Under the pieces are notes generated by a model, which saw nothing but the letters and a program-made list of their open reading frames with translations, was not told the origin of the DNA and ran no database searches. From Alphaproteobacteria bacterium (GTDB lineage Bacteria; Pseudomonadota; Alphaproteobacteria; MPNO01), in NCBI GenBank assembly GCA_965248835.1, contig CBDFLJ010000002.1, positions 96,001 through 160,000 of the forward strand: DNA of 64,000 bases, in the 5' to 3' direction. This document shows positions 4,020-44,568 of the stretch, in pieces; within the stretch, counting starts at the first letter, position 1, and every line of letters begins with the position of its first letter. A program made the translations under genes and the position numbers.

Positions 4020-4030
4020 CCGGCCGGCCG

Positions 4031-12821: not shown

Positions 12822-13007
12822 ATTTCGGGCTGGTTTGGCCCCAGCGCGGTGTACGGCATCACGGTGGCGACCGAGGCGATCGCCCGCGCGATGGGTGAAC
12901 GGACCCGGCCCGAGCCCGTTCATCGCTACGAGCTGGAGCCGCCGGCGCAGGTCGAAATCGGGCAACCCGTCCATGTCCATTTTCACGACGACGAGCTCGA
13001 GGGCTGA
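12822..13007 (+). pseudogene. 3' half of a phage-type hypothetical gene
   Basis: FGPSAVYGITVATEAIARAMG...PVHRYEL resembles the C-terminus of a common small phage protein (recall). The ORF-track start at 12684 lies inside the hairpin. Confidence 0.45.
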
Positions 13008-13011
13008 TCCG

Positions 13012-13242
13012 GTGGGCTATTTCGCGAACGGCACCGAAGCCGAGGGCTATCAGGCGCAATGGTGTGCCCGCTGCAAGCACGATGAGGAAGACCCCGGCTG
13101 CATGATCTGGCTGGCACACCTGCTGTGGGCCTACAGCGGCACCGACGAGCAGAAGGAAGTCCTCGACTTGCTGATCCCGCCGACAAAGAGCGGCTTCGGC
13201 AACGAGCAATGCAAGCTGTTCGTCGCCAGGGCCGACGCATGA
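13012..13242 (+). CDS. Small Cys-containing phage-type hypothetical protein
   Basis: GTG start; MGYFANGTEAEGYQAQWCARCKH...C...LIP...GNEQCKLF. ATGA overlap with the next gene. Confidence 0.6.
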   Translation: MGYFANGTEAEGYQAQWCARCKHDEEDPGCMIWLAHLLWAYSGTDEQKEVLDLLIPPTKSGFGNEQCKLFVARADA

Positions 13243-13496
13243 GCCAGCACCTGTGCCATTGGCCGGGCTGCGGGCGGGTCGTGCCGCCGAAACTGTGGGG
13301 CTGCCGCTATCACTGGATGCAGTTGCCCAAGCGCATCCGCGACCGGATCTGGAATGCGTATGTGCCGGGCCAGGAAGTCACCAAGAGGCCCGGCCGGGAT
13401 TACCTGTATGCAGCCCGGGCGGCGCAGGAGTGGATACGCGCGAAGAACAAGACGCCATTCGACGCGTGGCCGGCGGATCTGAGAACGAAGGGCTGA
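13239..13496 (+). CDS. Small phage-type Cys/His (putative Zn-binding) protein
   Basis: MSQHLCHWPGC...LWGCRYHW..LP..RDRIW..YVPGQE; translationally coupled to the preceding gene. Confidence 0.6.
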   Translation: MSQHLCHWPGCGRVVPPKLWGCRYHWMQLPKRIRDRIWNAYVPGQEVTKRPGRDYLYAARAAQEWIRAKNKTPFDAWPADLRTKG

Positions 13497-13516
13497 AGGC
13501 GCTGGTGCTCGAGGTT

Positions 13517-14710
13517 ATGAAGCGCGCTCGCACGAACAGGTTATGGCTGGGTTGTGATTGCCGGAGTGAGGACGGCAGGAGGCCCGTCGTTGCGCCGTGC
13601 GGGAATCATCGAGGGACCGATTACTGGCGGGTTCTGACGGGGAGGCAGGTTCTTCATGGTCGGGACTGTGTGTTTTATCGAGCGCATGTTCGACGCCGGC
13701 ATGAAGAACTGTGGAACCGGCCGGCGAGGAGGGCGCCGGTGGGCTACTTTGCGGTGCTCCGTGAGGGTGCTGAGGACCGGCAAGTCTTGGGTCCGAGCAT
13801 GCGCGGTGGCGTGGAGAGTGTTCGGCGGACAGTCCGCCGGCCGGCGCTTTCGCAGCTGTTATTGATGTTGATGGAGAAGGCCAACCTCAACCTCATCCGG
13901 TCGGTGGATGGATTTAAGCCGGCGAGTGATTGGCGGGAAGATATTCGGGAGATCATGAACGGTCTCGAGATTGCTCCCGCTCGCCTGCTGTCGGATCTAT
14001 GGTTCGATTATATCCGAATGTGGAGCGGCAATTTGGTCCATGCGAGGGTCCGCGCCGCGGCGAGAGATTGGCCGGCCGGGCATAAGCCGCAAGGGTTCGC
14101 TTGTTGGGTCGTTAGGGAAGTGGATGAATTCGGGGTTGGTACAGTCTCGAAAAATAATCGGGTCGAAGTTCTGTCCGGGGTTGGGTGCCCCGTTATCGGC
14201 CACAACCGGGTCGGCGGGCCGTATTTGTTTTTGGGTGGGGTGGGGCTTCCGACGCGGCAAAGCGGCTACGAGTGTCTCGAAGGCTATGCGCAACCGATAG
14301 TGGCGTGGGATTGCCCGGTGCCGGTGGATTCCGGGCAAGAGCGGCGGGCGTTCGGGACGCTGAGGGCTACGCAGCGGATCCTGAACGCGGCGTTCCCGGA
14401 CGCCGCTTTCGAGCTCAAGAAGCCAGTGTTCGAAATAGATACTGCGGAGGGGCCATGTCTCCCGGACTTCGTCATCGGGGCTCGGCGTGGCGAGGACGCG
14501 CTGCAATTCGTGGTCGAGGTGATGGGGTTTGATCGTGTCGCGTATCTGCTGGGTAAAGAGGTGACGCACCCTCGGATGAGGACCTTTGGGACGTTGTGTA
14601 CGATGCAGGCGAGTGAGTTCGACCGCGTCTCGGGGGAGGGAGTGAAATCAGAGGGGCGCAAGGTGACGGAGACGATCCGCCGTGTGCTCAGGGATAGATG
14701 GGGATCTTGA
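13517..14710 (+). CDS. DUF1173-like protein with Cys/His cluster and C-terminal PD-(D/E)XK-like motif; probably 5'-truncated
   Basis: WLGCDC...H...CVF at the N-terminus; PVDS..ER, LPDFVI...VVEVMGF...Y..GK at the C-terminus. G/T-rich codon style differs from the host genes. Confidence 0.5.
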   Translation: MKRARTNRLWLGCDCRSEDGRRPVVAPCGNHRGTDYWRVLTGRQVLHGRDCVFYRAHVRRRHEELWNRPARRAPVGYFAVLREGAEDRQVLGPSMRGGVESVRRTVRRPALSQLLLMLMEKANLNLIRSVDGFKPASDWREDIREIMNGLEIAPARLLSDLWFDYIRMWSGNLVHARVRAAARDWPAGHKPQGFACWVVREVDEFGVGTVSKNNRVEVLSGVGCPVIGHNRVGGPYLFLGGVGLPTRQSGYECLEGYAQPIVAWDCPVPVDSGQERRAFGTLRATQRILNAAFPDAAFELKKPVFEIDTAEGPCLPDFVIGARRGEDALQFVVEVMGFDRVAYLLGKEVTHPRMRTFGTLCTMQASEFDRVSGEGVKSEGRKVTETIRRVLRDRWGS

Positions 14711-14928
14711 AGCTATAGTGGGCGGCAGGCGACACCTTGGGCGTATTTAACTGATTATCGGTCCCGCCCTCGCCGCCCTCGCCGTCTGCGCTGCGAGCAC
14801 CAAGGCGGGGGAGGGGCTGAGCATGAACCTGAGGTTTCTACGGAAGCGAGTTGCATGTCGAGAGGTTTCGAGTCATGCTCGATGGGCTGCGAGGTGGCAC
14901 ATGGAAGTCTCAGTATAGGATGGGAGAT

Positions 14929-15305
14929 ATGGCAATGAAATATCTGCCATTGTGGTTGATCGGTTTTTGTTTGTTTTTGTGTTCAGGAACTATAACAGCT
15001 GCGGAGAAGCTACGCCATCTGAAGTAAAACAATTGTTGGACGACAGAACAATCAGCGGTGCCACTGCGATCAGCGGCGTTGGGTTCACTTTGAACTTCGC
15101 GGCCGATGGGAATGTTTCGATTGATACGGATAATTATGGTTCTGACAGAGGAAAATGGCGAGTTGATAAGGACGCGAACTTCTGTATCAAGTATCAACGT
15201 TTTCTCGATCAATTAGAAAATTGTTTTACGTTGGCAATACGGGATGGTCAGCCCGTGTCTTTTAGAGCGGACAATGGAGCACCAACTTACTGGAGATTCA
15301 AATAA
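14929..15305 (+). pseudogene. Frameshifted AT-rich secreted protein (DUF995-like)
   Basis: ATG 14929 gives a signal peptide MAMKYLPLWLIGFCLFLCSGTITAAEKL and then stops. Another frame continues TPSEVKQLLDDRTISG...GKWRV...FCIKY. One base appears to be missing near 15011. Confidence 0.6.
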
Positions 15306-15435
15306 AAATTGCTCGTTGTGAGATGATTTGAGACAGGATGGTGGTGCCCGCGATATTCATTTGGGGTTGTCGGTGACGGTGACGTCTGAGCCGTGCGATC
15401 GCCGTGGTCACTATCGGGTGGAGAGCTTGGTTAAG

Positions 15436-15504
15436 AGCGGCTTCGACAAGCTTCTGCCGATGCACGAGACCAAGGCGGACGCGCGCGCATCCCTCGGCGG
15501 CTGA
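15436..15504 (+). pseudogene. 3' remnant of a STAS (anti-anti-sigma) gene
   Basis: Translates SGFDKLLPMHETKADARASLGG*, matching the end of the STAS at 43070-43408 (SGFDKILPIHPSRAEALSSLGG*). Confidence 0.7.
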
Positions 15505-15727
15505 TCGGCCGGGGCAAGAACGCCGGGCCGAGCCGCCCCGGGATGTCCGACGGGCGGTTCGCTTCGCGGCCTTTGTAAAGCGTCCCTCCAGGGTCGATCG
15601 ACGGTCCGGTTGTCGCGCGAAGCCCCCGAATTGCGTTTGCGCCTTCGGCTCCTGTGCGCCGGGTTCGAGCGACCGCGTCGGATCGGCGGCCGGACGAGCA
15701 AATCCCCGCTTACGAGAGGCATGAGAG

Positions 15728-16432
15728 ATGGACAGACGGAAAGTAGCGATCGTCACCGCCGGCGGCCGGGGGATGGGCGCCGCGATTGCCCGAGCTCTAG
15801 CCGCGCAGGATCACGCGCTTGTCCTGATGTCGCCCGGCGGGTCCGCCGAGGCGCTGGCCGCAGAGCTCGGTGCGATCGGCGTCAACGGTTCGGTCACCAG
15901 GGCCGGGGACCTCGAAAAGCTGGTCGGCGCGGCGATGGACGCCCATGGCCGGATCGACGCCGTGGCCAACAACACCGGTTTCCCGCCCAAGGGGCCGCTG
16001 CTCGAGATCCCCGACGAGGACTGGCATGACGGCCTCGATATGGTCCTGATGAACGTCATCCGCATGGCCCGGCTGGTGACGCCGATCATGGCCGGGCAGC
16101 GCGGCGGTGCGATCGTCAACATTTCCACCTACGCCGCCGTCGAGCCCAGCCCGGCCTATCCGGTCTCCGCGACCTTCCGGGCGGGGCTCTCCGCGTTCAC
16201 CAAGCTCTATGCCGATCGCTACGCCCCCGACGGCATCCGCATGAACAACATCCTGCCCGGCTTCATCGATACCCACGGCGTCGACGAAGAGGTGGCGGAA
16301 GGCATCCCCGCGCGACGCTACGGAACCCCGGAAGAGGTGGGCGAAACTGCGGCGTTCCTGCTCTCCGAGGGCGCCGGCTACATCACCGGCCAGAACCTCC
16401 GCATCGATGGCGGGCTGACGCGGTCGGTGTAG
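15728..16432 (+). CDS. Short-chain dehydrogenase/reductase (SDR)
   Basis: TAGGRGMG, NNTG, NIST, NNILPG, YITGQNLRIDGG. Confidence 0.9.
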   Translation: MDRRKVAIVTAGGRGMGAAIARALAAQDHALVLMSPGGSAEALAAELGAIGVNGSVTRAGDLEKLVGAAMDAHGRIDAVANNTGFPPKGPLLEIPDEDWHDGLDMVLMNVIRMARLVTPIMAGQRGGAIVNISTYAAVEPSPAYPVSATFRAGLSAFTKLYADRYAPDGIRMNNILPGFIDTHGVDEEVAEGIPARRYGTPEEVGETAAFLLSEGAGYITGQNLRIDGGLTRSV

Positions 16433-16445
16433 CCCGCCGCTTTCC

Positions 16446-16819
16446 TCACGGGTGCAACGAGATACAGATCGCCTCTTCGCCGGGTATCTCGCCGTCGAGC
16501 ATCCGGATGGCGCGGTTTGCGTTCTCTAGCATTTCGTGGGTGTGCAACGGCGCGAGGCGTTCGAGGTTCCGCGCCAGCAGGTCGATGCCGGCGCGATACA
16601 TGTCCGCGCCCTGGGTGAACACCCCCTTCATGGTGATTTCCTTGTAAACCATGCGGTCGGTATCCAGGGTCGCCATGTTGGTGCCGCCCTTGACCCCCGC
16701 GGCGACGACGGTGTCGCCCGACCGCACGACCTCGATGGCGTGGCCGATAACCCCGGTGTCGGCCGGGACCACGTCCATGGCAATATCGACGCCGCTTCCG
16801 CCGGTGATCTCCATGACCC
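16446..16819 (-). pseudogene. C-terminal fragment of a medium-chain (Zn-binding) alcohol dehydrogenase, truncated by IS3
   Basis: EITGGSGVDIAMD...VYKEITMKG is the distal Rossmann part of MDR enzymes. The frame abuts the IS end at 16820. Confidence 0.7.
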
Positions 16820-16835
16820 TGACCTTCTCCCGACA

Positions 16836-17763
16836 TTAGGGCCAGGTCGGCTGAGAGTGTTTCGTGTCGATCATAGCGCTCAAGGGCAGCTGAGTGGAGC
16901 CGTTGCGGAGCTCATGCGAAGCTGCCCGTGTTGCCAGATAGGCGGCCGGCGTCTGATAGCCGAGCGCCGAATGCGGCCTGGCGGTGTTGTGGTGCACGCG
17001 CCAGGCCTCGATCACCGACCGGGCATGGGCCAGGCTGGTGAACCATTCCTCGTTCAGGCATTGATCGCGGAACCTTCCATTGAAACTCTCCACGAACGCG
17101 TTCTGCACCGGCTTGCCGGGCTCGATGAAGTGAAGGCCGACGCCGGTGCGCCGGGACCACTCGAACATCGCCCGGGAAGTCAGCTCCGGACCGTTGTCCA
17201 TGACCAGCGTCTCGGGCAGGCCACGGCGGGCGGCCATATCCTCGAGGAAGCGGACCAGCCGCGCCCCGGAGATCGACACGTCGACGATCTGGCCCGGGCA
17301 TTCTCGGCTGTGGTCGTCGACGATGTTGAGGATGCGGAACCGCCGGCCCGAGGCGAGCTGGTCGGAGACAAAGTCCACCGACCAGCGCTGCATCGGCCGC
17401 TGCGGCACAGCCAGCGGCATGCGATCACGGCGTGGCAGCCGCCGGCGTACGCGACGGCGCACCTGCAGGCCTTCCTCGCGGTAGAGCCTGTCGGTCCGCT
17501 TGGCATTCACCACCAGGCCCTCACCGGCCAGCAGCACATGCAGGCGCAAGTAGCCATAGCGCCGATAGCGCGCCGCCAGATCCTTCATGCGAACACGCAG
17601 AACCTCGTCCTGCTTGGGCGTCGGGCGATACTGCGCCACCGAACGCGACAGGCCGACCACGCGACAGGCCGACCACGCGGCAGGCCCGCCGCTGGCTGTA
17701 GCTGCGCCGTTCCATCAGATAGCCCACGGCGTCCCGCCGCGCCGCGGGCTTCACCAGTTTTTT
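16836..17763 (-). pseudogene. IS3 transposase OrfB (DDE), frameshifted by a 16-bp tandem duplication
   Basis: [29 protein letters not shown]. The duplication ACGCGACAGGCCGACC x2 at 17643-17674 breaks the frame after ACRVVGLSR. Confidence 0.85.
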
Positions 17764-18017
17764 GATAGCAGATCCTTCAGCGAGGCGTTGTCCAAGTGCG
17801 CTTCCGCCAGAAGACGCTTCAGTTTGGCGTTCTCCGATTCCAGATCCTTCAGGCGCCGCGCTTCGGACACGCCCATGCCGCCGTACTTCGACTTCCAGCG
17901 ATAGAAGGTCTGCTCCGAGATCCCATGACGACGGCACAGATCCCGCGCCGTCCCGCCGGCCTCATGCTCCCGAAGCACACCGATGATCTGTTCGTCCGTA
18001 AACCGATTCCGCTTCAT
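17751..18017 (-). CDS. IS3 transposase OrfA
   Basis: MKRNRFTDEQIIGVLREHEAG...CRRHGISEQTFYRWKSKYGGM HTH plus leucine zipper. Confidence 0.9.
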   Translation of the reverse strand: MKRNRFTDEQIIGVLREHEAGGTARDLCRRHGISEQTFYRWKSKYGGMGVSEARRLKDLESENAKLKRLLAEAHLDNASLKDLLSKNW

Positions 18018-18408
18018 GTCGAGTTCTCCCTTCAAAAGTCTCCTCCGGAAAACTCTCTTCCGCTATGGCCCGGATCACGGGGGGAAGGTCAAGCGCACTC
18101 TCATTGCCGTATCGAGAGATCAAAGAAACTCAATGAATTCAGTGCTCGGGTTGGATGCCGGTCTCGCCCGTTCGGGCGAACGAAATTCCAACTCCGGGAA
18201 TTCCAAATCCCGCTAACCCATTGAAATTTCTACGGTCTGAAAAGCCGTACAGAATTGGCGCAGTCAACAGTCGCGGAGAATATCGGCGGAGAGAGCGGAT
18301 TCGGCCCGAATCGCGGGACCGGCGGTCAACGGTTGTCGGCTGAAACCCGCGCGAATACTGAGCTTTTTGCGTTGCCCGAAGCGAACAGAGAAAGTTGGGC
18401 GTGGGGCT

Positions 18409-32458: not shown

Positions 32459-34555
32459 TCATTGGTGGCCGTGCAGCAGTTCGGAATAGGTCGGCAGCGG
32501 CCACAGACGGTGGTCCACGCGCTCCTCCAACCGATCCACCACCGCCCTTGCGGACTGCATCAGCGGTTTCATGGTTTCGTGGGCGTAGGACGCCGATTGC
32601 GCCGGGCCATCCTCGGGAAACTCATCGAACGCCTCGGCCAGATTATCGGTCTCGGTAAGCAACTGCTGAACGAGATCCTCCTTCTCGCCGAAAAGCCTGG
32701 AAGAAAAACCCGACCCGACGCCCGCGCGGACGTCTTCGATGGCCGCGGGGATGATGAAGGTCCGCAGGATGTTCAACAGCGTCCGCGCCTCGATCCAGAG
32801 CTCCGTGGCGTACGCCTCTTGCAGGACGCCCTGACGCGCCGCAATCTCCCGTTCGTTGAAGATGCCCAAATCACCGAACAGTCTGATGTTCTTGACCGAC
32901 GTCAGCTCCTGGTATGCCTCGGGGCTGCTCTTCAGATGGATCAGATCCCATCTTGCGGCGTGTTCATACAGCTCCTCGGAGTAGCCGTTGCCGCTGAACA
33001 ACGCGCCCTGGTTTTCCGCGATGGTCTCACGGATGACCTGGTCGACCTCCTTGCCGCCTTCGATCTCGTCGCACATGTGCTTCAGGCTGTCGGCCAGCGC
33101 CGCGTTGACCATCGTGAGCGGGAAGGCGATATGCTGGTTGCCGCCCACCGCCCGGAACTCGAACCGGTTGCCGCACCAGGGGAATGGCGCGGTGCGGTTG
33201 CGGTCCTCCAGATTGGCCCTGATGTCGGCGACCGGCGCCGATATCTCGATCTCCTTGTGCTGGGTTCCGTATGCGGTGAATTTGCCGCCTTCGGCGACCT
33301 TCTTGACATGCTTTTCCAGGAGCTCGCCGAGATGGAGCGTAATGATCGCCGGCGGCGCCTCCTGCGCACCCAGCCGGTGATCGTTGCCGGCGGTGGACAC
33401 CCCGCAACGCAGCAGATCACCGTGCTTGTTCACCCCGCGCAACAGCGCGGCGACGAAGGTGATGAAGCGCCGGTTGTCGTTTTCGGTTTTCCCGGGAACG
33501 AACAGATTGACGCCGGTGTCGGTGTTCAAGCCCCAGTTGTTGTGCTTGCCGTTCCCGTTGATGCCGGCAAACGGTTTTTCGTGGAACAAGATGGCGAAAC
33601 CGTGGTCGAAGGCCAGATCGCGCAGCACGTCCATCGCCAGCACGTTGGTGTCCGCGGCGAGGTTTGCCAAATTGAAGATCGGCGAGATCTCATGTTGCGC
33701 CGGCGCCACTTCGTTGTGGGTGCAGTGGATCGAAATCCCCAGCTCCCACATCTTCTCCCGCGCCGCCGCCATGTAGCGGTTCACCCGCGGCGGCAGCCTG
33801 GAGAAATAGTTGGTCGACATCTCCTGACCGCGAAGCGGCTTGGCCCCCACCAGAGTGCGTCCGGTGGCCACCAGATCGGGCCGCGCCAGATACTTCTCCC
33901 GGTCGATCAGGAAGAACTCCTGCTCCCAACCGACATTGCACACGACTTCCTTGGTGTCGGTGTCCCCGAGATGTTGCAACAACCGGAGGCTTTGTTCATT
34001 GACCGCAAGGTCGGCGCGCAACAGCGGGGTTTTCTGGTCGAGCGCCTCGCCGGTCCATGACACGAAGGCGGACGGGATGTACAGCGTTTGCCGGTAGACA
34101 AAGGGCGGTGATCCCGTATCCCAGCCCATATAAGCCGCCGCTTCGTGGGTTTCGCGGAGGCCTCCGTTGGGGAATGACGACCCATCGGTCTCGGTCTGGA
34201 ACAGTTGTGAGCCCGTCAAGTCTATGATCAACTTGTCGGTCGCGAAATCCACCGCCACGAATGTTTCGAGTTTCTCGCCGTGAATCGGCCCTCGTATGGG
34301 CGAGAACCAATGCGAATAGCCGATGCAGCCCTTCGACTGCGCCCACTCCAGGATGGATTTCGCCAACGCATCGGCGAAGTTCCTGTCCATCTGCAGCCCG
34401 GTCGCTCGGCACCGCGCGAACGCGTAATAGACGTCCGGATCGACCAGCTTTTTCAGGATCGCGTCGTCCAGCACATTGCTGTTCATGTTCGCCAATGCCT
34501 CGGGCAGGGCGACCGTCTGCGCCGGTGCGTCGTAGGTCGAATGCATCATGGCCAC
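32459..34555 (-). CDS. Glutamine synthetase type III
   Basis: About 700 aa; HWFSP, DGSSFPNGGLR, GWEQEFFL, HNEVAPAQHE, HEKPFAGINGNGKHNNW, NDHRLGAQEAPP, DRNRT..FEFR. Start placed at GTG 34555 behind GGGGAGG. Confidence 0.93.
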   Translation of the reverse strand: MAMMHSTYDAPAQTVALPEALANMNSNVLDDAILKKLVDPDVYYAFARCRATGLQMDRNFADALAKSILEWAQSKGCIGYSHWFSPIRGPIHGEKLETFVAVDFATDKLIIDLTGSQLFQTETDGSSFPNGGLRETHEAAAYMGWDTGSPPFVYRQTLYIPSAFVSWTGEALDQKTPLLRADLAVNEQSLRLLQHLGDTDTKEVVCNVGWEQEFFLIDREKYLARPDLVATGRTLVGAKPLRGQEMSTNYFSRLPPRVNRYMAAAREKMWELGISIHCTHNEVAPAQHEISPIFNLANLAADTNVLAMDVLRDLAFDHGFAILFHEKPFAGINGNGKHNNWGLNTDTGVNLFVPGKTENDNRRFITFVAALLRGVNKHGDLLRCGVSTAGNDHRLGAQEAPPAIITLHLGELLEKHVKKVAEGGKFTAYGTQHKEIEISAPVADIRANLEDRNRTAPFPWCGNRFEFRAVGGNQHIAFPLTMVNAALADSLKHMCDEIEGGKEVDQVIRETIAENQGALFSGNGYSEELYEHAARWDLIHLKSSPEAYQELTSVKNIRLFGDLGIFNEREIAARQGVLQEAYATELWIEARTLLNILRTFIIPAAIEDVRAGVGSGFSSRLFGEKEDLVQQLLTETDNLAEAFDEFPEDGPAQSASYAHETMKPLMQSARAVVDRLEERVDHRLWPLPTYSELLHGHQ

Positions 34556-34812
34556 CGGTTCTTCCTCCCCGATAGGTTCGCTGGTCGAGCCGAAACTACT
34601 GCATAACGCGACCGGCCGCCAAGGAGAACGATCCGCGCCGACGGCGCTGTCTGGCGCTGCGGGGCGGCGAGTATGAAGCTCCAATCAACTTGACCCTTGC
34701 GACGAAACCGGACAACAATTGTAGCGAACACTATGGACAACCGGATGCATGGCGATCGATCCGGAGCCGACATCTCGGACTGTCCGACACCGGGTGAAAC
34801 GTCGGTCCAGGG

Positions 34813-35253
34813 TTTGCTGAAATCGCTGTCCTCGAAATCTCGCTGACCAACGATCTTCAGGAGATCGCCGTCACGGCGGCGCAAATCGACGAATTTTGCG
34901 CTGCACGAGACCTGTCGCCGGCCATCGCCTTCGCCGTCAACCTGTCGGTCGATGAACTGCTGACCAACACGATCAGCTACGGCTACGACGACGGCACGCC
35001 CCATCGGATCGATATCGTGGTCCGCATGGACGGCAGCGTAATCGTCGTCGAGATCACCGACGATGCCAAGCCGTTCGATCCGTTCGAGGTCCAGAAACCC
35101 GATACCGACGCCGCGCTCGAGGATCGGCCGATCGGCGGATTGGGCGTCCACTTCGTCCGCGAGATGATGGACGGGTATCAGTACCGCCGCAGTCGGGGAC
35201 GCAACATCGTGACCTTGACCAAGGATACAAGGGGCGCCGCCGCCGGGACCTGA
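34813..35253 (+). CDS. RsbW/SpoIIAB-like anti-sigma factor Ser/Thr kinase (HATPase); lacks a canonical start codon
   Basis: Frame extended by hand: AEIAVLEISLTNDLQEI...NLSVDELLTNTISYGY...EITDDAKPFDP...RPIGGLGVHFVREMMD...YRR..GRNIV. TTT occupies the expected start position. Confidence 0.85.
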   Translation, partial: FAEIAVLEISLTNDLQEIAVTAAQIDEFCAARDLSPAIAFAVNLSVDELLTNTISYGYDDGTPHRIDIVVRMDGSVIVVEITDDAKPFDPFEVQKPDTDAALEDRPIGGLGVHFVREMMDGYQYRRSRGRNIVTLTKDTRGAAAGT

Positions 35254-35294: not shown

Positions 35295-37241
35295 TCAGGC
35301 GGGCCCGCCGTTGTACCTCAGCACCAGACAGGTGATGTCGTCGGATTGCGGCGCCTCGCCGACGAATTCGGCGACCGCAAGGGTCACGTTTTCGATCACG
35401 ATGTCGACGGGGATCTCGTGGCCGACAGACAGCGCGGTTCGAATGCGTGCCTCTTCGAACATTTCGCCATCGCTGTTCATGGCTTCGGATATACCGTCGG
35501 TATACATGAACAGCGTGTCCCCCGCGGCAAGCGTCAGGCTTTTCTCTTCGTATGGCAGTTCCGGCAGGACGCCGATCGCGACCCCTCCGGTCAACGGCAA
35601 CACCTCGATCCCGCCGTCTTGTCGAACCAGGTACGGCGGATTGTGACCGCCATTGGCGTAGCTGAAATGGCCCGTTGACGGATCCAGAATGCCGTAGAAC
35701 AGCGTCACGAACAGATCGTGGGGGTTCTGCGAGCAGATCCCGTCATTGACCAGGCGCAGGCAGTCACCGGCCCGGTCGGTGTCCTGCGCGGTGGTGCGCG
35801 TAACCGTCCTTGCGATCGCCATGAAGAACGCCGCGGAGACGCCCTTGCCGGAGACATCGGCGATCACCACGCCGAGGCGGCCGTCCGGCAGGGTGAAGAA
35901 ATCGTAGAAGTCGCCGCCCATCTCGCGCGCCGGAGTCATCAGGGCGTGCCCCGAATAAGCGGTGTTTCGCGGCAAGGTCTTCGGCAGAATCGCGCCCTGG
36001 AGGGAATGCGCGATGGCGAGCTCGTCGTCCATGCGCTGTTTGGCCTGATCGAGTTGCGCGTTCTTCTGCTCCAGGTCCAACGTGCGCTCAGCGACCAGGG
36101 CTTCAAGATGTTCCTCGCGTGCCTGGACTTCGCGCGCCATCGTCTGGAAGACGCGGATCAGCCGTCCCAGCTCGTCCCGCCGGTGGCCGACGCGGTCGAG
36201 CGACTCCGGGGCGAAACTGCGCCGGTCCATCTCCTCGGCTGCCCGGGTCAGAGCCATGACCGGCCGCGTGATGCGGCGGGCCGACAATATTGCCGTCACC
36301 GAGCCGATCAGGAAGGCGGCGGCCGCAACGACCAGACCGAACATGAGGTAATCGGCGAGCAACCGGTCGAGCTGGTCACGCGGCATGTGGATGATCGCAA
36401 CGCCGGTGGCAACGCCGCCGCGGTCCAGGATGGGCGCGCCGACATGGAGCTCGTCCCGGCTCAGAAAGGACTGTGCGCCCGCACCGAGTACGCGGCCGGC
36501 GAGCGCCCTGTCGGCGGCCATAAACACCGGTTCCGGCGCGCCGCCGTGCGTGCCGCTGGCGACCGCGGCATTCACCTGAAGTGAATCGTCGACCACCCAG
36601 ATCGCCCGGACTCCGGGTTGCCCGGCCAGCGAGCCCAGCGTCGCCGCGAGGCTGATGATCTCGCGCAGGTGCGTGGTCTTGTCCACCAGGCTGCCGACCA
36701 GCACCGGCCCGCCGCCGCGGGTGCGGACGCCGACATATCGCAAGGGGCGCTCCAACCCGTCCCGCGGCACCGACTGGAGGGTGACGGAGAAACGGCGTCC
36801 CGACAGGAGGGTTTGCAAGACCGGTCCGTCGATATCCTCCAGAGCCATGTCGGTGCCGGCCTGGCTGAGCCCGTTGATGGCGCGCGCCGACGGCGTTCCG
36901 CTTTCGTCCAATATCCAGATGTCGTCGATAACGCTGTTCGCGGTAATCTCGGCGAGGTGAATGGCCAGCGCGCCGGCGTCGGGGCCGACGACCTCCGCCA
37001 AGTGGGCCAGCGCGATCGCCTGTGCCTCTTTCTCTTGCGCGACGACGCGGTCGATCTCGTCGGATATCAGCCCGGCTCGGTTGGCCTCGCCCGCGATCAG
37101 GCCGGCGACAAGCCGCGCTTGGTTCTCGGCCTGGCCGATCAGCGCATCGCGGGCCAGGAGGCCCAACGCTATCGCCACGCCGAGGATGGCAACGCCGACC
37201 GACGCCGAGACGATCAGGACCAGATGCCGGGACAGACTCAC
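35295..37241 (-). CDS. Membrane sensor PP2C/SpoIIE phosphatase (TM-periplasmic-TM-HAMP-SpoIIE), RsbU-like
   Basis: Two TMs, HAMP (ITRPVMALT...DELGRL..F..M), GGDFYD, DVSGKG, NGGH, YTDGISE, DDIT. GTGA overlap with the upstream permease. Confidence 0.92.
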   Translation of the reverse strand: MSLSRHLVLIVSASVGVAILGVAIALGLLARDALIGQAENQARLVAGLIAGEANRAGLISDEIDRVVAQEKEAQAIALAHLAEVVGPDAGALAIHLAEITANSVIDDIWILDESGTPSARAINGLSQAGTDMALEDIDGPVLQTLLSGRRFSVTLQSVPRDGLERPLRYVGVRTRGGGPVLVGSLVDKTTHLREIISLAATLGSLAGQPGVRAIWVVDDSLQVNAAVASGTHGGAPEPVFMAADRALAGRVLGAGAQSFLSRDELHVGAPILDRGGVATGVAIIHMPRDQLDRLLADYLMFGLVVAAAAFLIGSVTAILSARRITRPVMALTRAAEEMDRRSFAPESLDRVGHRRDELGRLIRVFQTMAREVQAREEHLEALVAERTLDLEQKNAQLDQAKQRMDDELAIAHSLQGAILPKTLPRNTAYSGHALMTPAREMGGDFYDFFTLPDGRLGVVIADVSGKGVSAAFFMAIARTVTRTTAQDTDRAGDCLRLVNDGICSQNPHDLFVTLFYGILDPSTGHFSYANGGHNPPYLVRQDGGIEVLPLTGGVAIGVLPELPYEEKSLTLAAGDTLFMYTDGISEAMNSDGEMFEEARIRTALSVGHEIPVDIVIENVTLAVAEFVGEAPQSDDITCLVLRYNGGPA

Positions 37242-37870
37242 GTGTGCTGCTCCGCCAGGTGGACGCGCAAGCCCCGCATCACCAAGGTCACCGCGGCCGC
37301 GAAAGCGAGGAACCAGATCATTGCGTAAAGATAGACCCAGAACGAGAAATCGTTCCTGCCGATCGCGCCGATCACGGTCTCGGCCCGGTGGACGAGTTCC
37401 GGCACGCCAATGACCGAGGCGGTAGCGGAGGCCATGACGATGATCAGGAAATAGCTGGTCCAGGACGGCAGGAACAGCAGCGCTTCTGCGGTCTCTCGGC
37501 GTCTGAGGTGCCGCAGCGCGGCGAGCGCGTTGTCGGACACATAGCCGGCCACCGCGATCGCCAGCGCGAGCGATGCCTTGATCCAGGCCGGCACGGTCAC
37601 GACGACGCCAAGGAGTTCGAAGGTTCCGGGGACGGCATAGGCGAGATAGAACAGCATCACGAAGGTCGGCGCGCTGCGGGCGAACACCGTCAGCGCGCCG
37701 CCGCCCCGGCTGACGCCCGAAACGGAGCCGGCCCGCATCAACGCCAGCAGCAGCCCGATCGGCGTACCGATCGCCATCGCGGCCAGCGAGACGGCCATGT
37801 TCCAGCCGAACCCGCCCGCGAGGTAGGGCGTCCAGGTTATCAGCACGTCGGCAACATCGAGCATCGTCAT
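37238..37870 (-). CDS. Polar amino-acid ABC permease-like protein (HisM-type, EAA loop shortened)
   Basis: YLAGGFGWN, RSAPTFVMLF, ASVIGVPELV. ATGA overlap with the upstream gene. Confidence 0.8.
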   Translation of the reverse strand: MTMLDVADVLITWTPYLAGGFGWNMAVSLAAMAIGTPIGLLLALMRAGSVSGVSRGGGALTVFARSAPTFVMLFYLAYAVPGTFELLGVVVTVPAWIKASLALAIAVAGYVSDNALAALRHLRRRETAEALLFLPSWTSYFLIIVMASATASVIGVPELVHRAETVIGAIGRNDFSFWVYLYAMIWFLAFAAAVTLVMRGLRVHLAEQHT

Positions 37871-39477
37871 GACGCGTGGCCCCGCTGTTCCCAAAGGCGG
37901 AAGAGCTGGACCGTGAGGAAGACCAGTACGAAGTAGCAGATCAGCAGCAGGTTCATCATCACGTCGTCATTGCCTTTTTCGGCAACGATGGCGGTGCTGG
38001 CGTGCACCAGCTCCGGCAATGCCAGGGTGCTGGCCATCCCGGTCGCCTTGACGATGTTGACCGAATTGCCCATCACCGCGGCGTGGCACAGGCGCAGCGC
38101 CCGGCGGAACTCCCGGATTCTGAAGCCCAGCGCGCCGCCCGTGCCGGCGGCGACGTCCGCCGCCAGGGCGAACGAAACGGCATTGCTGGCTGCGGCGTAT
38201 AGCGACAACACCACGGATGTGACGGTGAATGCGTCGAGCGAGAAGCCGAGCGCCAGAATGACACCGCCAAGCCCGAAAAAGACGACATAGAGTTGCAGCA
38301 ACGGCGGCGTCATCCGCAAGACCGCGCAAAACGCATGCAGAAACCCACCGACGACCGGCACGCGCCGATGCATCAGCCAACCGAACACCGCGCCCAGGAC
38401 GATGCTGCCCATGACCGTCACGATCGACAGCGCGGCCGTCAGGGCCAGGCCGAAGAGAAAGACGTTGCGGTCCAGCGGGTCGTAGAGCAGGCTGACGTCC
38501 AGACCCGTCGCCTCCATCAGCATCAGGGATACCCCGGAAATGCCACCCAGTTCGCGGCCCGCGACCAGCGCGACCTCGCGGCATGCCAGCGGCCATCTTC
38601 CGGCGTCGTCGCGCCGGCAGACCAATTCGCCGGCCGCGTCGGTCTGCTGCCAAGTCGACCGGGCGCGCCGCAAATAGGGTGAGGGCGGCAACCCCCACCG
38701 CTTCTCCAGCTCTTGCAGGAAGCCGCCGCGGTGCCATCCGGCCAGCGTGTCGCCCAGCAGTCGATCCAGGCGGCTGCCCGCCTCTTCCTTGGCGATGGCG
38801 ATCGCCCAGGGTGAAACGAAACGCGTAGGCAAGGACACGCTGTAGCCGTCCCAGTCTCCGCTCGCCAGCTCATTCAACAGGTTGACTTCGTCGTACAGCC
38901 AACCGATGCAGTGCCCGTTGCGCAAGGCCAGCAAGGCCTCCCGCGTGGAGTTGAGGGAGATCGGCTCGACCAGGAGACGTTCGCGGGCGAGGCGATTCCA
39001 CAGCGAGCCCTGGACGCTGCACAGCGTCCGGCCCCGCAGGTCCTGCCAATCGGAGATCCGCGCATCCGGCCGCAACAGGACGTTGGCGCCGTCGCCGTAA
39101 TATTGCGGCTCGACCATGGTAACGAGCTCGCGGCGGCTGCGGGTGTCGCCCAGCGTGGCGACGATGACGTCGATTTCTCCGCGCTGGAGCTTCTGCAGCC
39201 GGTTGGCGCTGGTCACTGGTTTCAACCGCAGCGACACGCCGATGGCTTCGGCCAAGGCGCGGGCGACATCGGTATCGTAGCCGACCAGGGCGCCGCTGGC
39301 GTCGCGGAAGCCGAAGGGTCGGTAGTCGGCCTTGACCCCGGCAACCAGATAGCCGCGGCCGCGGATCTCCTCAAGCCGGTCGGCTGCGGCCGCGCCGACG
39401 CTGCACAGCCACACGCCGAATGCGATAAGCACGAAACCTGCATAGGGGCATGGGCGGTGCCGGCCAGAAGTGCTCAC
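37867..39477 (-). CDS. Fused SBP family 3 binding domain plus amino-acid ABC permease
   Basis: Signal peptide, RLEEIRGRGYLVAGVKADYRPFGF, VTSANR..L..GEID, then FLFGLALT, LRMTPPLLQL, IVKATGMAS. GTG start overlaps the methyltransferase stop. Confidence 0.85.
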   Translation of the reverse strand: MSTSGRHRPCPYAGFVLIAFGVWLCSVGAAAADRLEEIRGRGYLVAGVKADYRPFGFRDASGALVGYDTDVARALAEAIGVSLRLKPVTSANRLQKLQRGEIDVIVATLGDTRSRRELVTMVEPQYYGDGANVLLRPDARISDWQDLRGRTLCSVQGSLWNRLARERLLVEPISLNSTREALLALRNGHCIGWLYDEVNLLNELASGDWDGYSVSLPTRFVSPWAIAIAKEEAGSRLDRLLGDTLAGWHRGGFLQELEKRWGLPPSPYLRRARSTWQQTDAAGELVCRRDDAGRWPLACREVALVAGRELGGISGVSLMLMEATGLDVSLLYDPLDRNVFLFGLALTAALSIVTVMGSIVLGAVFGWLMHRRVPVVGGFLHAFCAVLRMTPPLLQLYVVFFGLGGVILALGFSLDAFTVTSVVLSLYAAASNAVSFALAADVAAGTGGALGFRIREFRRALRLCHAAVMGNSVNIVKATGMASTLALPELVHASTAIVAEKGNDDVMMNLLLICYFVLVFLTVQLFRLWEQRGHAS

Positions 39478-40322
39478 GGAGCGCCCGGAGCCCGAGGTCG
39501 GCTCACGATCAAGAAACCGTAGCCGCTGGCCACGGGCGCGAGCCGGCACGCCAGGTCGTCCAGTCGGCCGAGCAACGGCTTGCCGACAACAAGACTTTCG
39601 GGCAGCAGGCTCTCGGGTTCCATGCTCTCGATGCGGAAACCTGCGGCCGAGAGGTCGCGGTGTACCTCCGGCGGACGGAAGAGGTGGTAGAACAGCCGGA
39701 TCTCGTCGCGGCCGCGGCCGCGCGTATAGAGTATGTCGCCGGGCTCGAGTTCGCCGGCCCGCACCAGCGGGTCCGCCGCGCGTTGTTCGGCGCGAAACCG
39801 CCGTCGCGCATTCGGCAGGCCAAGGATCAGGACGCCGTCCGGTTTCAGCATTTCGCGCACCGCTCCGAGCAGGCGCATGCGCTCCGCCCGTCCGGCGACG
39901 TGCCCCAGAACCCCGAAAGTCAAAAGCGTGAGATCGAACGCGCAACGATACTTCTCGGCCAGCGCGGTCAGGTCGCCGTTCCGGATGACGAGCCGTCCGT
40001 CGCCCACGAACGCGCGCAGGCGCTCCGCCATCGTCTGGCACGCCGCCGGACAGACATCGTAGGCCACCCCGTTCGCCCGGGTCAGTTCCATCAGCGGCAG
40101 CGTGTAACGTCCCGTGCCCGCGCCAAAGTCGAGGAAGCGGCCTTCGGCGGGCAGACAGCGCAGCGACGTCCTCAGCGTGCGCCGGTTCGGGCGTGGATAG
40201 CGCTGGTCGTAAAGGCCGGAGGAGATGTAGGCCTCGTAACTGCCGGCCATGTCGGGCACTTCCGCCTGCGGTGCGGGCGTGTCGTGGTCCGGGACGCTAG
40301 CGGCGTCCCTGGGTGCGATCAT
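39474..40322 (-). CDS. Class I SAM-dependent methyltransferase
   Basis: FLDFGAGTGRY motif I, YDVC, FGVLGHV, LKPDG. Confidence 0.85.
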   Translation of the reverse strand: MIAPRDAASVPDHDTPAPQAEVPDMAGSYEAYISSGLYDQRYPRPNRRTLRTSLRCLPAEGRFLDFGAGTGRYTLPLMELTRANGVAYDVCPAACQTMAERLRAFVGDGRLVIRNGDLTALAEKYRCAFDLTLLTFGVLGHVAGRAERMRLLGAVREMLKPDGVLILGLPNARRRFRAEQRAADPLVRAGELEPGDILYTRGRGRDEIRLFYHLFRPPEVHRDLSAAGFRIESMEPESLLPESLVVGKPLLGRLDDLACRLAPVASGYGFLIVSRPRAPGAP

Positions 40323-40575: not shown

Positions 40576-41478
40576 TTGAGACCGCGAGTCAAGGATCCGT
40601 TGCGACGCTGGTCGATGGCGGCGGTGCTGGTGTTGGCCGGGCTGGCGGCCCACGCCGGAGCGCACGCGGCCGATGGCGTCCTGGAACGGGTCGCGGCCGA
40701 GGGGGTGATTCGCGCGGGCACCCGGGCAAGCGCGGCGCCCTTCGCCCAGAAGACGGCCTCCGGAGAGTTCGAGGGATTTTCGGTCGACCTGCTCGAGGAG
40801 ATCCGCGCAGCCGCCCAGAGGACGGTCGGCCGGGCCGTCCGGCTTGCGCTTTTCGAAGTTACCCCGGCCGATCGGCTGCAGCGCGTCGCAGCCGGCGAGA
40901 TCGACATCGTCTGTGGCATCACCACGCCGACCTGGAAGCGGGAAGGTCTGGTGGATTTCTCCCTGCCGTTCTTCCGCGACGGGACCCGTGTGATGGTCTA
41001 TCGTGGGCGTGCTGGGCGCGTCGCAGACATCCACCGGCTCAAGATCGGCGTGGTCCAGGGCACCACCACCGTAGCGGTTGTCAAAGATCGGCTGCCCGCG
41101 GCCAGTCTGCGCGTTTACGCCAACATGGGCAATGCGATGCGCGGGCTGGAGACCGGCGAGGTCGAGGGCGTGGCCAATGTCGGCGTCGTGCTGCTCGGGC
41201 TGAGTGCACGCAGCAAGCCGCGGCGCAGCGTCGTGTTGTTGCCCAGGACCCGCGCGTTGGCGACGGAAACTCTGGCCTGTGTCCTGCCGCAGAACGACAG
41301 CCGTTGGCGGGATCTGATCAACCGGACCTTGGTCGAGATGTATCTCGACGTGGAAGACTTCCGCGGCCGTTACGAGGAAATCTACAACCGCTGGTTCGGT
41401 CGCGACAGTGCGCTGTTCTATCCGCTCGACCGCGGTACCCGCGCCTACCTTGCCGATATCTCGGTCTGGGCCAGGTGA
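40576..41478 (+). CDS. Periplasmic amino-acid (Glu/Asp/Gln-type) binding protein, SBP family 3
   Basis: Signal peptide, GTRASAAPF, GFSVDL, VTPADR...GEIDIVCG.TT.T..R...VDFSLPFF, GTTT. Start uncertain (40576-40615). Confidence 0.85.
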   Translation: MRPRVKDPLRRWSMAAVLVLAGLAAHAGAHAADGVLERVAAEGVIRAGTRASAAPFAQKTASGEFEGFSVDLLEEIRAAAQRTVGRAVRLALFEVTPADRLQRVAAGEIDIVCGITTPTWKREGLVDFSLPFFRDGTRVMVYRGRAGRVADIHRLKIGVVQGTTTVAVVKDRLPAASLRVYANMGNAMRGLETGEVEGVANVGVVLLGLSARSKPRRSVVLLPRTRALATETLACVLPQNDSRWRDLINRTLVEMYLDVEDFRGRYEEIYNRWFGRDSALFYPLDRGTRAYLADISVWAR

Positions 41479-41579: not shown

Positions 41580-42968
41580 ATGAACCGCCGCAAGGTTGGC
41601 CCTCCGGGGTCCAGGGCGCGGCTTGGTGCAGCTCTGCCCTTCGGCTTCGCGGCCGCACTCTCCCTGGCGCTCTTCTCCTCGGAAGCGCGCGCCGCGCTCG
41701 ATAGCGAGACCCAGTTCGTCCTGAACAGTTTTTCGTTCCTGGTGTGGGGCGCACTCGTGATGTGGATGTGCGCCGGCTTTACCATGCTCGAAGCGGGTTC
41801 GGTGCGCACCAAGAACGCCTCCGTGATCTGCCTCAAGAACATCGGCCTCTATTCTATCGCCGGGCTGATGTTTTACTTGGTCGGCTACAACATCATGTAT
41901 GTTGACGTCGAGGCGGGCGGCTGGTTCGGCTCCCTCGCACTCCTTTACGAGACCTCGGCCGAAGAAGTCGCCATGTTGCAGGGCGGGGCGGAGACGACGG
42001 CCGCGGTCGTCAAGACCGGCCATGCGACGATGTCGGGCTGAATTTTCCAGATGGTGTTCGTGGCCACGACGGCCTCGATCGTGTCCGGCGCCTTGGCCGA
42101 ACGGGCAAAGCTGTGGTCGTTTCTGGTCTTCGTTACCGTGCTCACGACGATCATCTATCCGGTCGTCGGCGCCTGGACGTGGGGCGGCGGATGGCTCGCC
42201 GAAATGGGTTTCAAGGACTTCGCCGGATCGACCATCGTGCACTCGACCGGCGGCTGGGCGGCGTTGGCCGGCGCCCTCGTCGTCGGCGCGCGGAAAGGCA
42301 AGTTCCGCCAAGATGGCAGCGTCAAGGCGACCCCGCCGTCGAACGTACCCGCGGTGACGCTGGGCGTGTTCATTCTCTGGCTCGGTTGGTTCGGTTTCAA
42401 CGGCGGTTCGCAGTTGGCGCTCGCCGGTGTCGTCGACGCGGTGGCGATCAGCAATATCCTGGCCAACACGAACCTCGCCGCGGCCGCGGGCGTGATGTCG
42501 GCGATGTGCTTGTCGCGGCCCATCCTGGGGCGCCTCGATCTGCTCGCGAGCCTGAACGGCGCTATCGCCGGACTGGTGGCGATTACCGCGGGGCCCGACA
42601 TCGTCGATCACTATTGGGCTGTCGTCATCGGCGCGGTCGGCGGCGCCGTATGCGTCGCCGGTCTGAAGCTCCTGGAGCGCTTCAAGATCGACGATGTCGT
42701 CGGCGCAATCCCGGCCCATCTGTTCGCCGGCATCTGGGGGACGCTCGCGGTTTGCATTGCAGGCGGCGGCGATCTGCTGGTACAAATTGCCGGAATCGCG
42801 GCCATCGGCGCCGCGGTATTCGGTGCCTCTTGGTTGACGTGGTCGGTCATAAAGTGGACGATTGGCGTGCGTACCACGCCGATCGTCGAGCAGTTGGGTC
42901 AGGATGTGGCGGAGTTGGGCATCGAGGCCTATCCGGAATTCGTGGTCGTGCCAGACGCCGATGACTGA
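41580..42968 (+). pseudogene. amtB: Ammonium transporter (Amt) interrupted by one in-frame TGA at 42039-42041
   Basis: LVMWMCAGFTMLEAG.VR.KN, then SG*IFQMVFVAT, AER, DFAGSTIVH, WFGFNGGS, IDDVVGAIPAH. Both halves are in the same frame. Confidence 0.88.
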
Positions 42969-43069: not shown

Positions 43070-43408
43070 ATGGACGTTACGACCGAACGGCATGACGATG
43101 TTCTGTCCGCCGACGTGGGCGGGCGCATCGACGGATCCAATGTCGTCCAGTTCGAGGAAGCGATCAGAACCGCGATCGAGGACAGCGACCGCGCCGTGAT
43201 CATGGATTTCGGGAAGCTGGTATATATCAGCAGCGCGGGCCTTCGCGCCGTCCTGTTGACGGCCAAGTCCCTCCACAGCCGTGACGCCAAGCTGTTGCTT
43301 TGCTCGCTTTCGGGGCCGATCCGCGAGGTCTTCGAGATAAGCGGTTTTGACAAGATCCTGCCCATTCACCCGTCCCGGGCCGAAGCTCTCTCGTCTCTGG
43401 GCGGCTGA
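43070..43408 (+). CDS. STAS domain anti-sigma factor antagonist 1
   Basis: GRIDGSN, MDFGKLVYISSAGLR (phosphorylatable Ser), EVFEISGFD. Confidence 0.92.
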   Translation: MDVTTERHDDVLSADVGGRIDGSNVVQFEEAIRTAIEDSDRAVIMDFGKLVYISSAGLRAVLLTAKSLHSRDAKLLLCSLSGPIREVFEISGFDKILPIHPSRAEALSSLGG

Positions 43409-43561: not shown

Positions 43562-43918
43562 ATGCTGAACGTTACAGAAGAAAAAGCCGCCTCTGTGGCC
43601 ATCGTCTTGATCGACGGCCGTGCCGATGGCGTGACGGCGCCGGACCTTGAAGACCGGATCGTGAAAATTGTCGAACGCGGCGATGTCGATGTGTTGCTTG
43701 ATTGTGAAAAGATGGAATACATCAGCAGCGCAGGGTTGCGTGTCCTTCTCATAGGCGCCAGAAAATGCGAACAGAACGGCGGCAAGCTGTCGATTTGTGC
43801 GCTGCAGCCCGATTGTAGATCGGTCATCGAAATCGGCGGATTTCAAACGGTAATCGATTGTTATGACACACGCGAAGCCGCCCTCGCGGCCGCAGCGCAG
43901 CGGAGCGCAACATGCTGA
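43562..43918 (+). CDS. STAS domain anti-sigma factor antagonist 2
   Basis: GRADG, LDCEKMEYISSAGLRVL, VIEIGGF. Confidence 0.9.
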   Translation: MLNVTEEKAASVAIVLIDGRADGVTAPDLEDRIVKIVERGDVDVLLDCEKMEYISSAGLRVLLIGARKCEQNGGKLSICALQPDCRSVIEIGGFQTVIDCYDTREAALAAAAQRSATC

Positions 43919-44568
43919 CATTTGCGGAAGAGATTTTGTTGCTGATGCTGGATGACGAGGACGGTTCGTTTCTGCCGGTTCGTGAAAGCGCTGTCGAATA
44001 TGCCCTCGCAGGCGCTGTGCTGATGGACTTGGCGTTCTCGAACCGGATCGACACCGACCCGGATCAACTCGTTCTTCTGGACAACAAACCGACCGGCCAC
44101 CCGGTCCATGACAGAGTTCTTGATCACATTGCGCGCTCGTCCGAGACCAAGGACACGAAGACATGGATCGAGACGATTGCCCGGCTTGAATCCGCGGATA
44201 TCAGGAACCAGGCTCTTTCCAGCCTGATCGACCAGAATATTCTCGAATCACAAGAGGAAAAATTCCTTTGGGTCTTCCGCGCACGGCGATATCCGACGAT
44301 TGACGGGCGCACGGAACGCGAAGTGAAGCGGCGCATCACCGATGTCCTGCTGTCCGAAGCGGTGCCGGACCCCAGGGATGTAGCAATCGTCGGCCTGGCC
44401 GATGCCTGCGATCTGCTGCGCGAGGTGTTTTCCGACCGGGAGATCAACCGGATACGCCCGCGCATCGATCAGATCCGCAACCTGGATCTCCTCGGTCGCG
44501 AGGTTAGCGGCGCCGTCCTGGAAATCGAACGTTCGATCGCCATGGCGATGATGCATGCACCGCACTGA
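43912..44568 (+). CDS. GPP34/GOLPH3/Vps74 family protein
   Basis: MLTFAEEILLLMLDDEDG...LAGAVLMDLA...RID, L...IL...KFLWVF..RRYP. Overlaps the STAS 2 stop by 7 bp. Confidence 0.85.
   Translation: MLTFAEEILLLMLDDEDGSFLPVRESAVEYALAGAVLMDLAFSNRIDTDPDQLVLLDNKPTGHPVHDRVLDHIARSSETKDTKTWIETIARLESADIRNQALSSLIDQNILESQEEKFLWVFRARRYPTIDGRTEREVKRRITDVLLSEAVPDPRDVAIVGLADACDLLREVFSDREINRIRPRIDQIRNLDLLGREVSGAVLEIERSIAMAMMHAPH

Follow-up and report, generated by a model that had tools for sequence, protein, structure and literature searches.

A permease pair without an ATPase that is probably a receptor derived from a type I ABC importer

Within a 64,000-nucleotide stretch of an alphaproteobacterial genome, hereafter the window, four genes on the reverse strand (35295..40322) form a chain that includes both membrane subunits of an ATP-binding cassette (ABC) importer and no ATPase. 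The two permeases keep the importer fold, have lost the helix on which the ATPase docks, are under purifying selection, and are linked or fused to signalling proteins with two transmembrane (TM) helices. This motorless pair probably functions as a novel type of bacterial receptor and not in pumping; the signalling itself is what we infer from these observations. We favour, with some reserve, the reading that the pair is an ATPase-free receptor descended from a polar-amino-acid ABC importer, which passes the docking of its binding domain on to a partner and controls an RsbU/RsbW/STAS switch.

The chain is headed by a class I S-adenosylmethionine-dependent methyltransferase (39474..40322; 282 residues; Pfam Methyltransf_12/23/25). 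Next comes a fusion protein (37867..39477; 536 residues) in which a hydrophobic N-terminal leader precedes a family 3 amino-acid-binding domain (residues 44–262; Pfam SBP_bac_3) and permease 1 (approximately residues 338–530). Permease 2 (37238..37870; 210 residues, five TM helices) is followed by a two-TM sensor phosphatase (35295..37241; 648 residues; Pfam HAMP and SpoIIE) with a tandem PDC/dCache-like periplasmic domain, a HAMP domain and a SpoIIE-type PP2C domain. A first-pass annotation had described the four genes as chained by three 4-bp overlaps, and these are indeed present as GTGA at 39477–39474, ATGA at 37870–37867 and GTGA at 37241–37238. The permease 2/phosphatase junction is spanned without gaps by contigs from four runs of one sample, which is probably the source sample and so not independent. 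The two genes are split at the same place in two relatives (L001 and L004).

The AlphaFold model of permease 2 (pLDDT 90) has as its top structural match the ArtQ chain 4yms_C (Z 21.9, root-mean-square deviation 2.8, 194 aligned residues), an ArtQ/HisM fold. Two membrane domains of the MetI/HisM fold, with the structure modelled for permease 2, and a family 3 substrate-binding protein are what a type I importer contains. Both permeases score slightly below the TIGR01726 cut-off (36.9 bits against 42.2 for the fusion protein), and neither matches Pfam BPD_transp_1, which the intact sister permeases do match.

Two defining features of a type I importer are lacking: the EAA motif with its coupling helix, and a cognate ATPase in the operon. 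The TM3–TM4 segment of permease 2, put at about 25 residues without an EAA motif by the first-pass annotation, measures 26 residues in a multiple alignment (Y110–P135, 37466..37543, reverse strand) against 46 in canonical permeases. Aligned with ArtQ (4YMS), permease 2 shows a gap of approximately 18–19 residues at the EAA region. Relative to the intact sister family, motif and coupling helix have been removed as a single 20-residue block, and in the model only a four-residue helix (127–130) is left at the coupling loop. In permease 1 the loop (S431–A466, 38080..38187, reverse strand) has 36 residues rather than 46; here 10 residues and the EAA motif are missing relative to the sister family. 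We scored segment length over 400 distinct aligned rows and found 26 residues in 290, 36 in 56, 46 in 28 and some other length in the remaining 26. None of the 290 rows of the 26-residue, permease 2 type has an EAA-like motif and 1/56 of the 36-residue, permease 1 type does, against 22 of the 28 canonical rows. The absence of the coupling helix across the whole family bears out the earlier reading, which had spoken of eroded EAA loops. The loss stands, but "eroded" understates it: these are deletions of fixed length, conserved family-wide.

The ratio of nonsynonymous to synonymous substitution (dN/dS) is 0.20–0.26 for one membrane domain and 0.20–0.37 for the other, from three pairwise comparisons each. 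Both permease genes are under purifying selection, which indicates that the loss is maintained and is not decay. For wider comparison we used 120 loci (40 genome loci and the best 80 of 115 metagenome loci), which are strongly biased to close kin, so that counts drawn from them overstate independence. The genes have open frames throughout these loci, the deletion length is fixed in the 290 distinct rows, and the linkage has been kept through several rearrangements. Selection and conservation contradict the idea of a decaying importer relic that lies beside a signalling cluster by chance. We give this idea practically no credence, even though the sub-threshold Pfam and NCBIfam scores and a neighbouring amt gene that is broken in the assembly would fit it.

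No ABC ATPase is encoded in the window, as had been stated earlier. Searching with a profile made from 46 ABC ATPases of the genome gave 104 open reading frames (ORFs) genome-wide, the nearest at C2:27512 and C2:193912, more than 30 kb beyond the window, and among 43 other called genes of the window none matched ABC_tran in Pfam. An LptF/LptG-like permease pair in the same window (2859–5095, forward strand), near acyl carrier, aminotransferase and AMP-ligase genes, also has no adjoining ATPase; an absent neighbour therefore proves little by itself. Across the 120 loci, 37 ABC ATPase genes lie near the module, and the 15 representatives that we classified are of polyamine, sugar, peptide, LptB, PhnC, type I secretion, Zn and B6 type, with three of polar type. 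Four loci (L004, L039, L111 and L117) contain a polar-type ATPase, accompanied every time by canonical permeases that belong to it. In L090 and L095 a B6-type ATPase directly follows the phosphatase at a contig end, which leaves its own permeases out of view. In loci of the L016-L036 type an ABC ATPase adjoins the divergent binding protein; it was considered as a cognate motor and rejected, because it is ZnuC, with ZnuB alongside. No cognate ATPase was found in the homologous operons of the 120 loci. Together with the family-wide loss of the docking helix, this upholds the proposal that both permeases have lost ATPase coupling.

Could an ATPase from elsewhere dock on the loop remnants and power an ordinary importer? 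Other importers share ATPases in trans (MsmX/MsmK), and at least one GlnQ-type ATPase is encoded in 29 of 30 module-bearing genomes, the exception (G401) being 64% complete. Use in trans can therefore be argued against from the missing docking helix and not from absence. In L111 and L117, moreover, a complete polar-amino-acid ABC system follows the module on the same strand. Against such an arrangement, permease 2 has lost the docking helix and permease 1 has a shortened one that lacks the EAA motif, canonical permeases go with every polar-type ATPase found near the module, and the single polar-type ATPase of the genome described here (318 bits, next 183) adjoins its own two permeases. We judge an importer powered in trans to be very unlikely. 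A phylum-wide search at E 1e-20 (14 of 401 genomes) led to a sister family in which a binding protein and two permeases with full 46-residue loops have a GlnQ-type ATPase directly behind them (4/7 regions examined). In the best tree these intact sisters are nested among the short-loop rows. The sister family would provide an ancestral control for the change from pump to sensor.

By gene order and by fusion, the pair is tied to three kinds of two-TM partner: the Cache-HAMP-PP2C phosphatase, a TAXI-like membrane protein and a dCache cyclase. Among the 60 well-flanked loci (4 kb on both sides), 52 contain the phosphatase and 6 the TAXI-like protein, while two loci (L028 and L062) contain neither; the two partners never share a locus (0/120). 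STAS genes are present in 33/60 and RsbW in 17/60, and the linkage of the module is kept through several gene orders. The fusion of binding domain and permease 1 is found in 116 of the 120 loci, the remaining four being truncated at contig ends. In 41 related genomes, the same 15 have permease 2 and the full phosphatase sensor, adjoining; the full sensor is in none of the other 26. Distance correlations among six domains (0.80–0.91) were set aside as evidence, as they reflect shared ancestry. The C-terminal part of the TAXI-like protein matched no named family. TAXI-linked loci (L038-L040, L107, L120) carry an upstream cluster with two DUF2589 genes, accompanied in L038 by a chitinase-like GH19 gene, and in L038-L040 and L120 the module is followed downstream by a winged-helix regulator whose N-terminal part is unusual. 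In one case, L054 (1795-3399, forward strand), permease 2 is followed in the same orientation by a chemoreceptor (MCP) gene, possibly a fourth type of output.

Permease 2 is also found in natural fusions, which join a transporter fold to a signalling domain as in a transceptor. Of the 118 permease 2 genes in the loci, 14 are fused to the PP2C phosphatase and five to RsbW, and fusions to the TAXI protein occur in three different, divergent proteins; the fusion clusters have 24, 16, 1, 10, 3 and 3 members. The RsbW fusions do not form one clade (approximately unbiased test, p-AU 0.0004). In the phosphatase fusion, of which one natural example has 855 residues, a basic cytoplasmic linker of approximately 17 residues connects the permease's last helix to the sensor's first, so that the two helices would lie side by side in the membrane.

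A distant clade, clade B, has the same 26-residue permease 2 loop; it and the phosphatase clade may share one deletion event or have undergone separate ones (p-AU 0.47). Here the order is a dCache-adenylate/guanylate cyclase, a HemK/MTS-like methyltransferase, the binding domain-permease 1 fusion and permease 2 in seven of nine loci; of the other two, one lies on a contig that ends early and one has transposase-like genes upstream. The clade B operon loci come from three genera in two families, and no ATPase was found in the clade B operon. Three of the 11 regions examined in the clade B search belonged to the phosphatase clade. The cyclase-tied clade and the fusions to RsbW and phosphatase lend added support to the receptor reading.

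Conservation within permease 2 peaks in the pore-lining helices (0.84 against 0.68 overall). The polar residues of TM3 and TM4 are strongly conserved, as would be expected if the uncoupled pair were an ATP-free carrier that passes an amino acid, or its N-methyl or N-formyl derivative, by facilitated diffusion. The adjoining methyl- or formyltransferase would then trap the compound inside or make an exported signal, while sensing by the phosphatase would be a separate process that uses its Cache domain together with the second binding protein. In most lineages a transferase gene lies directly upstream, and three different enzymes fill this slot: the methyltransferase (39/60 well-flanked loci), a formyltransferase (3/60, never with the methyltransferase) and, in the distant cyclase clade, the HemK/MTS-like methyltransferase. 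The sensor domain is also found without permeases. Yet 18 of the 60 well-flanked loci have no transferase and keep the permeases, 17 of them with phosphatase or RsbW/STAS genes, and among the fusions seen permease 2 is joined to signalling proteins and never to a transferase. Tyr100, Glu103 and Glu152 of ArtQ, which we take to be substrate-binding positions in the pore, are partly replaced in the alignments, a weak point as it depends on those presumed roles. A carrier of this kind is possible but, in our judgement, unlikely. In the binding domain, R115 and D196, presumably amino-acid ligand positions, are conserved. Gly110 was considered as a marker of an N-substituted ligand and dropped, because the position varies in sister importers.

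The phosphatase lies within a set of signalling genes that the first-pass annotation had overlooked, together with the phosphatase's own Cache-type sensor. An RsbW-type anti-sigma factor kinase (34804..35250, forward strand; Pfam HATPase_c_2) is convergent with it. A second, stand-alone family 3 binding protein (40615..41478, forward strand), GrrP-like with 135.6 bits to TIGR04262 against a cut-off of 190, is divergent from the chain. Further along the forward strand lie two STAS-only proteins (Pfam STAS), the first of anti-anti-sigma type and a likely substrate (43070..43408), the second at 43562..43918. RsbW and the two STAS genes are the sole blastp matches of their kind in the genome, and PP2C phosphatase, RsbW kinase and STAS proteins are encoded together as in an Rsb partner switch. 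The acidic catalytic residues of the phosphatase (D444, D447, D462, D582, D634 and D635) are invariant in 46 rows. Its best NCBIfam match is SiaA, at 114 bits against a cut-off of 700. No sigma factor or other target of RsbW/STAS was found among the scanned window genes; no genome-wide search was made. At the point where the homologous region of the RsbW gene begins there is no ATG, GTG or TTG, and the contigs agree there. The start is thus uncertain, with a rare start codon as a possibility.

The periplasmic domain of the phosphatase matches PDC folds with Z up to 12.7, and 2hj9, the LuxP-LuxQ complex, is among its fold matches. Binding proteins that signal directly to periplasmic sensors are known from LuxP-LuxQ. 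The permease pair could, by analogy, be a passive scaffold that merely anchors the binding domain and the signalling proteins, the signal going from binding domain to Cache domain in the periplasm. A scaffold, however, would not account for conservation that is highest in the pore-lining helices rather than on one outer surface, or for the retention of two distinct subunits in every lineage examined, and we consider it improbable.

If the pair is instead a receptor, the fused binding domain would capture a periplasmic amino acid or derivative, close, and dock on the permeases as in an importer. The pair would then change conformation without an ATPase, and the last helix of permease 2, lying against the first TM helix of the phosphatase, would bias the HAMP-PP2C output. 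The phosphatase and the RsbW kinase would have opposing effects on the STAS proteins. The second binding protein is probably a parallel input through the Cache-like domain of the phosphatase, and the methyltransferase may modify the ligand or the receptor.

Several observations weigh against this mechanism. With a Cache-type sensor of its own, the phosphatase could sense with no part played by the permeases, reading a ligand directly or through the second binding protein, which nearly always accompanies it (52/60 well-flanked loci; in other lineages this binding protein is part of the phosphatase operon). In G281 a relative of the sensor is part of a cyclase, and no permease pair lies within 20 kb of it. 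L062 retains the permeases without either partner, and no enzymatic output domain is seen at the TAXI-linked loci. Genes that overlap by 4 bp are easily fused, and a single origin is possible for the PP2C fusion (p-AU 0.36). The high conservation of the pore-lining helices fits a carrier equally well, and to these points are added the GlnQ-type ATPases elsewhere in nearly all module-bearing genomes and the kinship bias of the loci.

More tentatively, the module may represent a portable receptor class. It would consist of a binding domain and a permease heterodimer without a motor, exchangeable two-TM outputs (PP2C partner switch, class III cyclase, TAXI-like protein) and an N-methyl- or N-formyltransferase dedicated to making or adjusting an amino-acid signal, possibly a self-made cell-to-cell signal. 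In current annotation these genes appear as ordinary permeases or hypothetical proteins. Carriers in culture include Kaistia geumhonensis and Aquamicrobium zhengzhouense (by source names) and Collimonas, which makes testing practical.

Other genes surround the module. A GPP34-family gene (43912-44568, forward strand; Pfam GPP34) directly follows the second STAS-only protein, and a GPP34 (GOLPH3-like) gene occurs together with partner-switch genes in eight of the 120 loci (L003, L005, L026, L028, L043, L049, L113 and L119), of which L113 and L119 are distant. In L113 (2451-13263) the motorless pair is surrounded by a formyltransferase, two Cache-PP2C genes, two further binding proteins, GPP34 and RsbW. 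A type III glutamine synthetase (32459-34555, reverse strand) and amt (41580-42968, forward strand) border the module in this genome and in several of its close relatives, which suggests nitrogen control; both are missing from most distant loci. The amt gene has an in-frame TGA (42039-42041) where three relatives carry Trp, in a stretch that is apparently one residue shorter. This suggests a broken gene or an assembly error, the site being outside the contig-checked stretch. At 12849-18035, short unnamed ORFs and a transposase/integrase pair of IS3 type point to a small insertion.

No description of a motorless-pair system was found in literature listings and the opening lines of abstracts, a scope that leaves out most subscription journals and supplements. 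To our knowledge, type I ABC membrane domains have been regarded as inseparable from their ATPases. Whether receptor or ATP-free carrier, either reading, if true, would be a new use of the type I ABC fold; the receptor would show that a pump can become a sensor by one deletion and the recruitment of a partner. It also makes testable whether the docking of a binding protein alone can move a permease pair.

Among known systems, the polar-amino-acid importers Art(QN)2 (PDB 4YMS), HisJQMP2 and GlnPQ, the last with fused binding domains, share the membrane-domain fold, the family 3 binding domain and the two permeases. They differ in that the pair described here has no ATPase gene in its operon, has the EAA motif and coupling helix deleted, and is linked or fused to signalling proteins. 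In PstSCAB-PhoU-PhoR and UhpC-UhpB, a transporter or its homologue controls a membrane signalling enzyme. UhpC is a major facilitator superfamily (MFS) protein, and the ABC co-sensors PstSCAB-PhoU-PhoR and BceAB-BceS, unlike our pair, keep the ATPase and the coupling helices. BceAB-BceS and DctA-DcuS are named as transporter co-sensors in the accessible text of a report on 5TMR receptors (PMC11109136).

On the output side, chlamydial RsbU senses alpha-ketoglutarate and dephosphorylates RsbV (PMC11619594). The chlamydial switch (RsbU, RsbW, RsbV1/V2) likewise combines a membrane sensor phosphatase with a periplasmic domain, a kinase and two STAS proteins; the accessible part of the study mentions no permease pair or binding proteins, unlike the module here (PMC11619594). 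SiaA of P. aeruginosa is similarly a membrane sensor phosphatase with a periplasmic domain. The closest published concept is the S-component/5TMR transceptor fold: as far as the accessible text goes, 5TMR receptors have the fold of an energy-coupling factor (ECF) S-component joined to kinase, MCP or SpoIIE outputs and are termed the first prokaryotic transceptor case (PMC11109136). They have another fold, in which a single membrane domain binds the ligand itself, whereas the pair described here is a type I ABC heterodimer served by a periplasmic binding domain (PMC11109136).

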